From: an uncultured Bacilli bacterium
GTDB lineage: Bacteria > Bacillota_I > Bacilli_A > RF39 > UBA660
Assembly: GCA_944329365.1 (NCBI GenBank)
Contig: CALVIC010000004.1
Location: 1-62,916, forward strand
DNA length: 62,916 bases
Direction: 5' to 3'
In this document: piece after piece, positions 6,467 to 12,311 of the stretch
Layout: each line of letters starts with the position of its first letter
Position numbering within the stretch: position 1 is the stretch's first letter
Made by a program: the position numbers and the translations under genes
Notes under the pieces: model-generated
Databases searched by the model: none
Told to the model about the DNA's origin: nothing
The model's input: only the letters and a program-made list of their open reading frames with translations

Positions 6467-6495
6467 TTGTCAAGAAAAAGAAAATAGGTTATACT
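6467..6495 (+). promoter_or_regulatory. sigma-A-type promoter for the tRNA cluster
   Basis: TTGTCA (6467-6472), 17-nt spacer, TATACT (6490-6495), about 20 nt upstream of tRNA-Ile. Confidence 0.6.
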
Positions 6496-6516
6496 TAGAG
6501 AGTCATGTGACATAAT

Positions 6517-6593
6517 GGGCCTGTAGCTCAGTTGGTTAGAGCACACGCTTGATAAGCGTGGGGTCGTAGGTTCAAGTCCTACCAGGCCCACCA
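6517..6593 (+). tRNA. tRNA-Ile (anticodon GAT)
   Basis: GGGCCTGTAGCTCAGTTGGTTAGAGC..., anticodon loop TT-GAT-AA, discriminator A, encoded CCA. Confidence 0.95.
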
Positions 6594-6599
6594 TTATTT

Positions 6600-9106: not shown

Positions 9107-10564
9107 ATGAATTACAAGGTAATGATCGGTCTTGAGATGCACTGCGAGATTAGTAAGACAAAGACTAAGGTATTTTCAAGTGCGAAGAATTCATTTAGTG
9201 AAACTCCTAACTGTAATGTTAGACCTGTGGATATGGCTTTTCCTGGTACTTTACCGGTTGTCAATAAGGAAGCTGTTAAAATGGCCCTTATGGCAAGTAT
9301 GATTTTAGGGTGCACGCAACCAGAGTATTTATATTTTGAAAGAAAGAATTATTATTATCCGGATTTACCAAAAGGTTTTCAAATTACGCAGGAAACTAAA
9401 CCCGCACCAGTTGGAAGTTATGGTAAGCTTACTTACGAGTGTAAGGGTGAAAAGAAAACAGTTAGAATAAATAATTTACATTTAGAAGAGGATGCTGCTT
9501 CTTCTGATCATTATACTAGTTGTTCAAGAATTAATTACAATAGAGCAGGAGTTCCTTTACTTGAGCTTGTTACGGAACCTGATTTTCATTCAGCTGATGA
9601 GGCAGTTGCTTTCTTAGAAGAGATGAGGAGTATTTATCAGTATGCAGGTATTTCTGAGGCTGATAGCAAAAAAGGTCAAGTTAGATGTGATGTCAATGTA
9701 TCTATTATGGATAAGAATTTGGATGATAGTGACCCAAATAACTGGGGAACTAAGGTTGAAATTAAAAACGTTAATTCATTTAGCGGAGTTAGAGATGCCA
9801 TAAACTATGAGATTCAAAGACAAATTGATTTGAAAGAAGACGGTAAATATGATGAGATGCCTCAGCAAACTCGTAGATGGGATGAGGAAAGTGCATCTAC
9901 AATATTTATGCGTGGAAAGGTCGATGCAATCGATTATAAGTATTTTGTCGAGCCTAATATTCCAAAGTTTAAGATTTCTAAAGAATGGCTTGAAGAAATT
10001 AGAAAGTCTATACCGATGCTTGCTCACGAGAGAAAAGATATGTATATGAAGGAATACGGAATTTCTGAATACGATGCTAGTATTTTAGTTAAGGAAAAAC
10101 CGGTAGCTGATTTCTTTGAGGAGACTTTAAATTTAGGAGCTAATCCAAAGAGTGCGTCTAATTGGATTACGACTAATTTACTTGGTAATTTAAATAAAAT
10201 GGAAATTACAATTGAAGAGTCTAAACTTACTCCTAGTCATTTAGCTGAACTTATTAAAATGGTCGAGGATGGAGAGATTTCTTCTCAGCAGGCTAAGGGT
10301 GTGTTTACCGAAAGTTTAGAGAGTGGTAAGAGTCCGAAGAAGATTGCTTCAGAAAAGGGGCTTAAACAGATTACGGATACTAGTGAGATTGAAAAAATCG
10401 TCAATGAAGTTTTGGATGAAAATCCTGATATTATCGAGCAATATAAGAATGGTAAAGTAGCTATGGTTAATTATTTAGTTGGCCAGGTTATGAAGAAGAC
10501 TCACGGAACGGCTAATCCAAGTTTAGCTCGTGATGTGATGGCCAAAGAGATAGAGAAGAGGTGA
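9107..10564 (+). CDS. gatB: Asp-tRNA(Asn)/Glu-tRNA(Gln) amidotransferase subunit B
   Basis: N-terminus IGLEMHCEI, NLHLEEDAAS, C-terminal YqeY-like tail; start abuts the gatA stop. Confidence 0.95.
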   Translation: MNYKVMIGLEMHCEISKTKTKVFSSAKNSFSETPNCNVRPVDMAFPGTLPVVNKEAVKMALMASMILGCTQPEYLYFERKNYYYPDLPKGFQITQETKPAPVGSYGKLTYECKGEKKTVRINNLHLEEDAASSDHYTSCSRINYNRAGVPLLELVTEPDFHSADEAVAFLEEMRSIYQYAGISEADSKKGQVRCDVNVSIMDKNLDDSDPNNWGTKVEIKNVNSFSGVRDAINYEIQRQIDLKEDGKYDEMPQQTRRWDEESASTIFMRGKVDAIDYKYFVEPNIPKFKISKEWLEEIRKSIPMLAHERKDMYMKEYGISEYDASILVKEKPVADFFEETLNLGANPKSASNWITTNLLGNLNKMEITIEESKLTPSHLAELIKMVEDGEISSQQAKGVFTESLESGKSPKKIASEKGLKQITDTSEIEKIVNEVLDENPDIIEQYKNGKVAMVNYLVGQVMKKTHGTANPSLARDVMAKEIEKR

Positions 10565-10568
10565 TATT

Positions 10569-12311
10569 TTGAATATTTATAGAACACAGTATAATAAAGA
10601 TCTATCTGAAGATTGTATCGGAAAAGAGATAAGAGCTTGCGGGTTTGTCGAGAATATTCGTGATCATGGAGGGGTTATATTTGTCGATGTTCGTGATGAG
10701 ACAGGAATGCTGCAAGTTGTAAGTAATGACGATAAGATGTTTGAGGGTTTAACTAAAGAGTCAGCGGTTACTTTAAAGGGTACGGTTCGAATGAGAGACG
10801 AAGAGAATTTCAATCCAAAGATTAGTACTGGAACAATCGAAGTTTTAGCTTCAGAGTTTAAAGTTTTAGGTAAAGCTAATAACGAACTTCCTTTTGAAAT
10901 AATTACTTCAAAGAATGTTAATGAAGAAGTTAGACTTAAATATAGATATTTAGATTTAAGAAATCCAAAGGTTCATGAGGTTATTAAGTTTAGAAGTGAA
11001 GTTATCAAGTTTTTGAGAAATAAAATGGATAGTTTAGGTTTTACGGAGATTCAAACACCAATTTTAACAGTTTCTTCTCCAGAAGGCGCGCGCGATTATT
11101 TAGTTCCTTCTCGTAAATATAAAGGTAAGTTTTATGCACTTCCACAAGCACCACAACAATTTAAACAACTTTTGATGGTTGCTGGATTTGATAAATATTA
11201 TCAAATCGCTCCTTGTTTTAGAGATGAGGATGCTAGAGCTGATAGATCACCGGGTGAGTTTTATCAACTTGATATGGAAATGGCTTTTGCGACAGCAGAA
11301 GATGTATACGAGGTATCTGAAGAGGTTGTTTACGAGACTTTTAAAAAGTTTTCTAATAAAGAAGTTTCTCCAAGACCGTTTAAGAGAATTCCTTATAGAG
11401 AAGCAATGCTTAAGTATGGTACTGATAAGCCTGATTTAAGAAATCCACTTGAAATTATAGATTTAACTGAGGTATTTAAAAATACAACTTTTAAACCTTT
11501 TTCTGGTTCATGTGTTAGAGGTATTACAGTTCATGATATTGCTTCTAAGCCAAATTCTTGGTTTAACGAGCTTGTTGCATATGCGTCAAGTATTGGAATG
11601 CCAGGTATTGGATATATAAGCGTTTTAGATGATATGAGTTTTAAAGGACCTATTGATAAGTTTTTAACTGATGAAGAGCGAAAGGGACTTATAGAAAAAG
11701 CTTCTTTAAAGAAAGGCTCAGTACTATTCTTTATTGCCGATAAGAAGGAAAAAACAGCTTCAATTCAGGCAGGAATGATTAGAACAGAGCTTGGTAAGAA
11801 GTTAGATCTAATTGATAATAACAAATTTGAATTCTGTTTTATTACAGATTTTCCGATGTATGAATACGATGATACTTTGGGAAAATATATATTTATGCAT
11901 AATCCATTTAGTATGCCAAAAGGCGGACTTGAAGGACTTGATAATCCAAATATAGAAGATATTTTAGCTGATCAATATGATATCGTGTGCAACGGCGTGG
12001 AGCTTTCTTCTGGAGCTGTTAGAAATCACGATGTAGCAGTTATGGAAAAAGCGTTTGAGATAGCTGGTTATACTAAGGAAGATGTAAAGAATAGATTTAA
12101 ATCCTTATATACAGCTTTCCATTATGGGGCACCACCTCATGCAGGTATCGCACCAGGTATTGATAGAATGATTATGCTACTTAAAGATGAGCCAAATATT
12201 AGAGAGGTTATTGCATTTCCACTTAACAGTAATGCTCAAGATGTGATGATGGACGCACCTTCAGAAATTAGTGAGGCTCAGCTTAGAGAGGTTCATATTA
12301 AGATTAGATAA
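10569..12311 (+). CDS. aspS: aspartate--tRNA ligase, bacterial type. I infer it is non-discriminating from its context
   Basis: Class IIb motifs (FYALPQAPQQFKQLLM, CFRDEDARADR, GIAPGIDR). TTG start 4 nt after gatB. Confidence 0.9.
   Translation: MNIYRTQYNKDLSEDCIGKEIRACGFVENIRDHGGVIFVDVRDETGMLQVVSNDDKMFEGLTKESAVTLKGTVRMRDEENFNPKISTGTIEVLASEFKVLGKANNELPFEIITSKNVNEEVRLKYRYLDLRNPKVHEVIKFRSEVIKFLRNKMDSLGFTEIQTPILTVSSPEGARDYLVPSRKYKGKFYALPQAPQQFKQLLMVAGFDKYYQIAPCFRDEDARADRSPGEFYQLDMEMAFATAEDVYEVSEEVVYETFKKFSNKEVSPRPFKRIPYREAMLKYGTDKPDLRNPLEIIDLTEVFKNTTFKPFSGSCVRGITVHDIASKPNSWFNELVAYASSIGMPGIGYISVLDDMSFKGPIDKFLTDEERKGLIEKASLKKGSVLFFIADKKEKTASIQAGMIRTELGKKLDLIDNNKFEFCFITDFPMYEYDDTLGKYIFMHNPFSMPKGGLEGLDNPNIEDILADQYDIVCNGVELSSGAVRNHDVAVMEKAFEIAGYTKEDVKNRFKSLYTAFHYGAPPHAGIAPGIDRMIMLLKDEPNIREVIAFPLNSNAQDVMMDAPSEISEAQLREVHIKIR

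Follow-up and report, generated by a model that had tools for sequence, protein, structure and literature searches.

An asparagine-specific T-box leader conserved upstream of tRNA-Asn genes and gatCAB in uncultured gut Bacilli

Introduction

T-box riboswitches have been described in front of genes for aminoacyl-tRNA synthetases, biosynthesis and transporters. A 62,916-nt stretch of contig CALVIC010000004.1 of an uncultured Bacilli bacterium (this whole stretch is called the window below) carries a T-box leader specific for asparagine (Asn). It lies directly upstream of four tRNA-Asn genes, which are followed by the amidotransferase genes gatC, gatA and gatB (gatCAB) and by the aspartyl-tRNA synthetase (AspRS) gene aspS. 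Its modules, specifier logic, UGGN/NCCA contact and competition between terminator and antiterminator are those of the canonical synthetase T-boxes, such as Bacillus subtilis tyrS and glyQS and the Asn T-boxes of asnS. It differs from them in that the first genes under its putative control are the RNA genes of its own ligand, with no open reading frame (ORF), and in its location inside a tRNA operon. The loci compared here would thus extend T-box control to the genes of the ligand, across a clade of uncultured gut Bacilli.

The NT-box operon of Clostridium acetobutylicum resembles this locus by a terminating T-box with an Asn (AAC) specifier and an operon encoding AspRS and GatCAB, as far as it is presented in papers that cite it (PMC4206432, PMC4574755). 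An earlier note on the window, made from the sequence alone (the original prediction), had named such a precedent, and in the accounts of the citing papers it is real. The same accounts report no tRNA genes between leader and enzymes. C. acetobutylicum differs further by its U1-A72 tRNA-Asn, three aspS and two gatCAB (PMC4206432 Table S2). In the window, the specifier region reads GAA-U-AAC, with no overlapping Glu codon. The NT-box, by contrast, reportedly uses overlapping GAA/AAC codons (GAAC), as Saad and colleagues are said to have described in 2012 in J Biol Chem and in 2013 in PNAS. Among the homologous loci or contigs compared here, designated by L-numbers, a GAAC overlap is limited to some relatives, e.g. 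L013, L016, L029 and L061.

Mixed tRNA-mRNA operons are known from Escherichia coli, where the tRNAs of thrU-tyrU-glyT-thrT-tufB are excised by processing. The tufB operon shares with the window the co-transcription of tRNAs and a translation-related mRNA but has neither a riboswitch nor any sensing of tRNA charging. The Asn-transamidosome of Thermus thermophilus, Helicobacter pylori and Pseudomonas aeruginosa (PMC3367201, PDB 4WJ3) has for components the very set encoded in the window, i.e. tRNA-Asn, aspS and gatCAB. In contrast with it, the tRNA-Asn of the window lacks U1-A72 and the operon of some relatives includes asnS, and a transamidosome activity of the window set is putative. The Wels 2008 survey and the TBDB database contain protein-coding T-box targets only, and the survey lists no T-box in front of amidotransferase genes. 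In open-access full text, searches for a T-box in front of tRNA genes gave no match, which is absence of evidence only. Leaders of this kind, with the genes of their own ligand as first targets, form a conserved and apparently undescribed architecture, and annotation pipelines that assign T-boxes to ORFs only will mis-assign such leaders.

The leader and its predicted transcription unit

Features were assigned with Rfam covariance models (T-box and tRNA), ARAGORN (tRNA), NCBIfam (proteins), a consensus promoter scan and hairpin energies, and the coordinates are collected in Table 1. The T-box model RF00230 matches over its full length at 6699-6941 (151.7 bits, gathering score 93, E 3.5e-34), which bears out the complete leader of the original prediction. 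The codon read there as the specifier is also the one given by the covariance-model alignment. In this alignment the specifier loop is GAA-U-AAC-A, with a conserved purine after AAC and, next to it, the Stem I strand CCAC. The AAC specifier pairs with the GUU anticodon of the tRNA-Asn of the same organism. The UGGN bulge belongs to an antiterminator (AAGGUGGUACCGCG...UUCGUCCUU, 6905-6938) in which helices 9 and 10 reach 97-98% pairing among homologous leaders. The terminator hairpin at 6923-6954 consists of GCAGUUA/CGUCC-UUAC-GGAUG/UAACUGC, and UUUUUGUUU occupies 6955-6963 behind it. The hairpin has a folding energy of -17.5 kcal/mol, against -2.6 kcal/mol for the antiterminator alone. The leader thus has all the sequence and structure hallmarks of the T-box family and would be expected to respond to tRNA.

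The run of U residues ends 10 nt before the first tRNA-Asn gene. ARAGORN and Rfam agree on the four tRNA-Asn genes, and NCBIfam identifies gatC, gatA, gatB and aspS behind them, in the order proposed. All four tRNA-Asn have G1-C72, G73 and an encoded CCA, and their array consists of a two-tRNA unit of 170 bp duplicated at 98% identity. The tRNA-Ile and tRNA-Glu genes upstream of the leader do lie behind a TTGTCA-17-TATACT promoter, as had been proposed, and this is the sole + strand site with at least 9/12 consensus matches between 6353 and 9276. At this threshold, which a weak promoter in AT-rich DNA could escape, the + strand is blank across 6496-9275, in agreement with a leader inside a tRNA operon without a visible promoter of its own. 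A hidden gatC promoter was sought in the window and in L007, and the candidates were rejected for unfit spacings. At its 3' end the unit has a closing terminator (12291-12325), absent from the original description, which overlaps the aspS stop codon, and the next promoter is found at 12336-12363. Given the promoter at 6467, this terminator and the new promoter beyond aspS, the transcription unit would span from ~6467 to ~12325.

Conservation of the layout

By its GatB (97% identical), the window organism is related to Candidatus Coprosoma intestinipullorum, an uncultured chicken-gut Bacillota. Four metagenome-assembled genomes (MAGs; GatB 83-97% identical) have tRNA-Ile, tRNA-Glu, the T-box, one to four tRNA-Asn genes, gatCAB and aspS in the same order. 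In two remoter MAGs (GatB 70%) a promoter, the T-box, one or two tRNA-Asn genes and gatCAB follow one another, and tRNA-Ile and tRNA-Glu have shifted to the downstream side. These two tRNA genes are located downstream of the operon and not upstream in L007, L008, L034 and L045. The tRNA-Asn copy number (one to four) is to be read cautiously because short-read assemblies collapse tandem repeats. Some assembled tRNA-Asn copies have mismatched acceptor stems and look like chimeras of neighbouring copies, i.e. recombination or assembly artefacts.

A scan of metagenomes with a deliberately general DNA pattern (T-box core, 35-65 nt, common tRNA D-arm) yielded 56 contigs: 52 with an Asn T-box and tRNA-Asn(GUU), one phenylalanine (Phe) case and three chance matches (L023, L054 and L042), left out as GC-rich sequence or tRNA array. 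The pattern detects tRNAs with one type of D-arm, and the numbers hold for T-box/tRNA units with such tRNAs only. A second scan, of viral contigs for a T-box core and any tRNA T-loop, gave a single match (L065), which has no real T-box and was rejected as a chance match inside a phage tRNA array.

The layout was counted over 59 loci. A tRNA-Asn gene stands directly behind the leader in 58 of them, the remaining one being truncated at a contig end. The comparison with relatives called for by the original prediction places the tRNA block within the leader-gatC interval, with gatC at most 420 nt away, in 41 of the 43 loci with at least 450 nt of downstream sequence. Since the order recurs in 58 independent loci, the layout is not due to chance. 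Protein identity among the loci with the conserved layout falls to 54% for GatA and 36% for GatC. On this comparative evidence, where the tRNA block lies is a stable trait and no accident.

Leader statistics rest on 44 distinct leaders, with a mean column identity of 54% and Rfam scores of 88-152 bits. The AAC specifier, S-turn, AG bulge, distal loop and T-box sequence are invariant, and the motifs AGUA, AGAGA, GGUG-AA and GAA-N-AAC are unchanged. In the structure derived from Rfam, 90.7% of pair cells are paired, compared with 37-51% when partners are slid. Compensatory changes occur at 34/45 pairs, and the observed values are reached in 0/500 shuffles. The helices of Stem I are 84-96% paired and show compensatory changes as well. 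To judge from this covariation, the leaders are functional T-boxes under selection.

A resemblance of Stem I of L007 (AAUUAAGC) to a tRNA acceptor strand was rejected as mimicry: it is a conserved piece of Stem I that does not track the acceptor elsewhere. The L007 locus also carries a 172-aa ORF between gatB and aspS (9453-9971) and a 154-aa ORF after aspS (11730-12194), both without NCBIfam match and both found in L008, L034 and L045.

Expression platforms and the terminator behind the tRNA genes

The leaders form two classes. Class A (UGGU; 16 distinct leaders including that of the window) has long hairpins with a median of -15 kcal/mol, followed by a U-run of at least 5 nt in 11/16. Class B (UGGC; 28 distinct leaders) keeps a competing CGUCC/GGACG hairpin with a median of -9 kcal/mol, reduced to ~4 bp in the L007 subgroup, has no U-run beyond 3 nt and often ends in an A-rich tail. 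Class B loci include L007 (5816-6240), L008, L011, L013, L017, L025, L031 and L039. A consensus TTGACA-17-TATAAT promoter lies close upstream of most inspected class B leaders. The output of class B may be termination that is weak or depends on factors, or else an influence on how the 5' end of the neighbouring tRNA matures.

A canonical terminator, typically ACAAGUCC-loop-GGACUUGU with U6-8, follows the last tRNA-Asn gene in 38/45 loci (26/26 of class B, 12/19 of class A). The Shine-Dalgarno (SD) sequence and ATG of gatC lie within ~15 nt of it, leaving no space for a promoter, and a promoter of gatC itself is absent in every relative inspected. Because the promoter abuts the leader and the gatC SD/ATG abuts the terminator, tRNAs and gatCAB would be reachable solely via the leader in many relatives. 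The seven loci without the hairpin are exactly the subclade of the window (the window, L002-L005, L029 and L048), where CCA-UC-U7 is left. The original prediction of no recognisable terminator between tRNAs and gatC thus stands for the window but does not describe the family. The lack of this terminator in the window is, judging from its distribution, a derived state. It would couple tRNA-Asn and enzymes more tightly, since the stretch from the promoter to the aspS end has the T-box terminator and no other.

The interval 7303-7351 of the window, with UC and U7 but no hairpin after the last tRNA-Asn, looks like the remnant of a post-tRNA terminator. A pairing of the post-tRNA terminator with the tRNA T-arm was considered and rejected: its sequence varies freely, as in an ordinary terminator.

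Duplicated and non-asparagine T-box/tRNA units

Two loci inform on the target of the control. In L015 (889-1570) an Asn T-box (889-1111, 131.9 bits) precedes two tRNA-Asn genes and a second one (1314-1526, 127.8 bits) lies between these genes and gatC. Both leaders have canonical terminators and are diverged paralogues with compensatory changes. Because the tRNA-Asn genes of L015 own a separate leader, control of the tRNA genes itself appears to be selected. L046 (911-1420), from an unrelated organism of higher GC content, has a Phe T-box of 115.4 bits whose specifier is UUC, whose UGGU matches A73 and whose terminator is canonical. Behind it come just two tRNA-Phe(GAA) genes and then a strong terminator, and no synthetase gene lies downstream. 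T-box/tRNA units therefore extend beyond asparagine, a T-box preceding the genes of its own ligand once for tRNA-Phe as well. The second tRNA-Phe gene of L046 has no encoded CCA, and its neighbours include an NlpC/P60 hydrolase.

Proposed mechanism and alternatives

The leader of the window is probably a working, transcription-terminating, Asn-specific T-box that acts as the internal gate of one long unit, with co-transcription and antitermination as the processes that its layout suggests. Transcription from 6467 would always produce tRNA-Ile and tRNA-Glu. The polymerase would then halt at 6955-6963 (~6960) unless an uncharged tRNA-Asn is bound. In this complex the GUU anticodon would contact AAC (6787-6789), the tRNA elbow would lie on the platform of Stem I and the free GCCA end would pair with UGGU (6909-6912). 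The bound tRNA would stabilise the weak antiterminator against the far stronger terminator. Read-through would reach the four tRNA-Asn genes and, with no second terminator or promoter in this subclade, continue into gatCAB-aspS, the tRNAs being released by RNase P and 3' processing. The switch would sense the ratio of uncharged to charged tRNA-Asn, which total tRNA-Asn and the downstream aminoacylation enzymes would follow.

Any aminoacyl group on a tRNA blocks the contact of its 3' end with a T-box. Asp-tRNA(Asn) and Asn-tRNA(Asn) should for this reason be alike to the sensor, a blindness that the original prediction had pointed out and that agrees with established T-box knowledge. In vitro work on glyQS has reportedly shown that charged tRNA competes at Stem I, and because of this competition read-through would track the ratio of uncharged to charged tRNA. 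The original prediction also implied a runaway feed-forward loop, in which uncharged tRNA-Asn induces more tRNA-Asn. Such an outcome is not necessary, since competition by charged tRNA can make the loop homeostatic. If the charging enzyme is unsaturated, extra tRNA would be mostly charged, the ratio would fall and the gate would close. The loop can in this manner be a homeostat of the charged pool that works by adjusting total tRNA.

Some points weigh against such a gate. The UGGU bulge of the window gives a mere U-G wobble with G73, a pairing that is accepted by TBDB, while half of the relatives carry UGGC (C-G). Transcription termination is not the universal output of the leader family, because the 28 UGGC leaders are without a U-tract. 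There is no obvious logic in an Asn-specific gate in front of gatCAB and aspS, should these be single-copy housekeeping genes. That the tRNA genes escape leader control altogether, through an unrecognised promoter of their own or because the leader is a decaying relic, its juxtaposition resulting from tRNA insertion, is nevertheless highly improbable. Promoter-like sites do arise often by chance in AT-rich DNA (35 were found by the consensus scan for 27.7 expected), and the class B leaders without U-tract terminators would fit a relic. Such an escape has to contend with the 10-nt gap, a 3' half of the leader devoid of + strand promoter-like sites, the scores, covariation and invariant AAC of leaders with a mean identity of only 54%, the order preserved in 58 loci and the dedicated T-box/tRNA units of L015 and L046. 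It is also improbable that the leader family, at least in its UGGC class, acts post-transcriptionally on RNase P access or precursor folding. By this route, which is just as improbable, uncharged tRNA-Asn would promote the maturation of new tRNA-Asn instead of antitermination. The alternative UGGC hairpin does stop 2-19 nt short of the first tRNA-Asn base, it is kept in 28 leaders with short U-runs and often A-rich tails, and the same loci place canonical U6-8 terminators after the tRNAs. This route is conjecture without precedent, termination that is weak or depends on factors is the simpler account and the leader of the window itself has a canonical terminator.

These loci constitute a natural system for relating the level of an individual tRNA to its charging state, a relation poorly understood in bacteria. 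They offer comparable variants, i.e. dual T-boxes, leaders with or without a terminator and loci with or without a second terminator before gatCAB.

The role of GatCAB and AspRS

The original prediction took GatCAB and a non-discriminating AspRS to make Asn-tRNA(Asn) by the indirect route, perhaps as the sole route of the cell. This part is doubtful in view of the tRNA identity pair, a published survey and the asnS genes found within the operon of some relatives. All 43 distinct tRNA-Asn sequences of the clade, on which the tRNA statistics rest, have G1-C72, G73 and an encoded CCA. Bacterial GatCAB picks its substrates by U1-A72 through the 3-10 turn of GatB, and for the Staphylococcus aureus enzyme a G1-C72 substrate lowers the efficiency ~15-fold (PMC2811023). 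In a survey of 547 genera, U1-A72 tRNA-Asn was found in 284/284 genera without asparaginyl-tRNA synthetase (AsnRS), and non-U1-A72 tRNA-Asn solely in genera encoding asnS (PMC4206432). The latter include Erysipelothrix, Mycoplasma, Spiroplasma, Acholeplasma and a phytoplasma, i.e. the Mollicutes and Erysipelotrichia group (PMC4206432). The window has gatC, gatA and gatB but not the U1-A72 pair that goes with the tRNA-dependent Asn pathway.

Four relatives carry asnS within the operon (NCBIfam 552-625 bits), in the order gatCAB-asnS-aspS in L013 and gatCAB-asnS in L044, L055 and L063. A tblastn search of the window and all loci detected asnS in these four and not in the 62.9-kb window. No asnS, asnA or asnB is present among the window ORFs examined, the other ORFs examined being unrelated. 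The closest AsnRS homologues are from gut Acholeplasma sp. CAG:878, Candidatus Faecisoma and 'Tenericutes'/Bacilli MAGs. Where its place was inspected, in contigs L066-L069 of CAG:878 and Ca. Faecisoma, asnS lies elsewhere, behind a UvrD-like helicase gene and a 51-aa ORF, with no space for a leader. The asnS neighbourhood of CAG:878 shows no synteny with the window, and homology searches for AsnRS and GatB returned no contig common to both. The names under which two related MAGs were deposited, uncultured Erysipelotrichaceae in the case of L008, and the Acholeplasma-like closest AsnRS matches point towards the neighbourhood of Mollicutes and Erysipelotrichia. The NCBI listing of the window organism is Bacillota incertae sedis.

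The GatB of the window has a 3-10 turn region of bacterial length, in which the hydrophobic anchor Met184 of S. aureus is replaced by Ser. Across the clade the equivalent residue is Ser, Thr or Val (region of GatB residues ~183-205), and window-like GatBs have a 5-residue insertion, LDDSD, after the next strand. All AspRSs have His in the RDHGG motif, as do the Asp/Asn enzymes of P. aeruginosa and Mycobacterium, E. coli having Leu. At the second signature position they have Glu instead of Gly or Lys. These positions are reportedly the signature of non-discriminating AspRS, as defined by Bernard and colleagues in 2006. The best PDB match of the window AspRS is that of the P. aeruginosa transamidosome, 4WJ3.

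We give roughly even chances to an ordinary housekeeping role, in which AsnRS is encoded elsewhere in the genome, GatCAB makes Gln-tRNA(Gln), AspRS charges tRNA-Asp and gatCAB-aspS are read-through passengers. By function the Asn T-box would then belong with the tRNA-Asn genes, and by ancestry with an asnS once inside the operon, with the same, even, degree of confidence. The G1-C72 tRNA-Asn, linked by the survey to AsnRS, argues for this role, as do asnS between gatB and aspS in L013 or after gatB in three other loci, asnS elsewhere in the CAG:878 and Ca. Faecisoma contigs, and the strong tRNA-gatC terminator of 38/45 loci, which makes promoter, T-box, tRNA-Asn and terminator self-contained. 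It is at odds with the second Asn T-box straight before gatCAB-aspS in L015, the lack of a gatC promoter in the relatives inspected and the loss of the post-tRNA hairpin in the window subclade, which tightens coupling; an asnS gene in this genome is, moreover, hypothetical. Conversely, it is rather unlikely that the operon is a full tRNA-dependent Asn pathway (tRNA-Asn, non-discriminating AspRS and GatCAB) with an altered GatCAB identity rule, and maybe the only route to Asn-tRNA(Asn). The likeness to C. acetobutylicum speaks for such a pathway, and the dedicated leader before gatC in L015 argues that control of gatCAB-aspS by tRNA-Asn is wanted. It is also consistent with the absence of asnS, asnA and asnB from the ORFs examined, the His of RDHGG and the 4WJ3 match, a tRNA-Asn/gatCAB linkage that holds down to 36% GatC identity and the replacement of Met184 throughout the clade. 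Against the pathway stand the G1-C72 of every tRNA-Asn variant, the ~15-fold preference of bacterial GatCAB for U1-A72 together with the bacterial length of the 3-10 turn, and the survey, which ties non-U1-A72 tRNA-Asn to asnS in the related Erysipelothrix, Mycoplasma and Spiroplasma among others. The four relatives with asnS in the operon have the same tRNA type, AsnRS is common in gut Acholeplasma-like relatives and the second AspRS signature position is Glu, not Gly. A more far-reaching proposal appears quite unlikely: the four genes would be the only tRNA-Asn of the cell, GatCAB and AspRS would have co-evolved with G1-C72, one riboswitch would set all Asn-decoding components and the sister leaders without U-tract would control tRNA maturation.

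An Asn-specific gate before gatCAB-aspS is in conflict with a tRNA-Asn lacking the canonical GatCAB identity pair. Either GatCAB recognition would have changed in this lineage, or essential enzymes of Gln and Asp charging would be slaved to the status of tRNA-Asn.

Feature coordinates and other observations in the window

Table 1. Features of the tRNA-Asn/gatCAB-aspS unit in the window.
Feature	Position	Strand	Evidence and remarks
Sigma-70-type promoter of the whole unit, TTGTCA-17-TATACT	6467..6495	+	10/12 matches; conserved in L002-L005
tRNA-Ile(GAT)	6517..6593	+	ARAGORN; Rfam tRNA 76.5 bits
tRNA-Glu(TTC), discriminator A73	6600..6675	+	ARAGORN, Rfam
Asn-specific T-box leader: Stem I, Stem II, IIA/B pseudoknot region, Stem III, antiterminator, terminator	6699..6963	+	Rfam RF00230
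Specifier codon AAC (Asn), followed by A6790	6787..6789	+	Covariance-model alignment; invariant in 44 distinct leaders
T-box bulge UGGU; partner the tRNA 3' end GCCA, U-G wobble at the discriminator	6909..6912	+	
Intrinsic leader terminator: hairpin 6923-6954, then UUUUUGUUU	6923..6963	+	Fold
Four tRNA-Asn(GTT)	6973..7048, 7057..7132, 7143..7218, 7227..7302	+	ARAGORN, Rfam
U7 tract after the last tRNA-Asn, hairpin missing	7305..7311	+	Complete hairpin-plus-U terminator at this place in most relatives
gatC	7352..7648	+	TIGR00135, 50.8 bits, above cut-off
gatA	7649..9106	+	TIGR00132, 437.6 bits; best match, slightly below curated cut-off
gatB	9107..10564	+	NF004012, 585 bits
aspS, bacterial type with GAD domain	10569..12311	+	NF001750, 752.9 bits
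Intrinsic terminator closing the unit: GUUCAUAUU/AAUAUGAAC + U7, AT-rich	12291..12325	+	Read from sequence

The window contains a second T-box at 30149-30348, which serves as a standard comparator. It is specific for isoleucine (specifier AUC, 116.6 bits), has a UGGU bulge and a canonical terminator of -19.6 kcal/mol, and begins at the stop of the ORF 29673-30152. It is followed by genes for an alpha/beta hydrolase (30363-31142), a murF-like protein (31139-32728), ddl (32742-33935) and ileS (33953-36688), so that cell-wall genes lie between the Ile T-box and ileS. Further downstream, the ORF 49915-51519 encodes an ABC-F protein, with 460.8 bits for the 'ribosomal protection-like ABC-F' model against a cut-off of 380, and is followed by genes for two MsbA-like ABC exporters (52146-56238).

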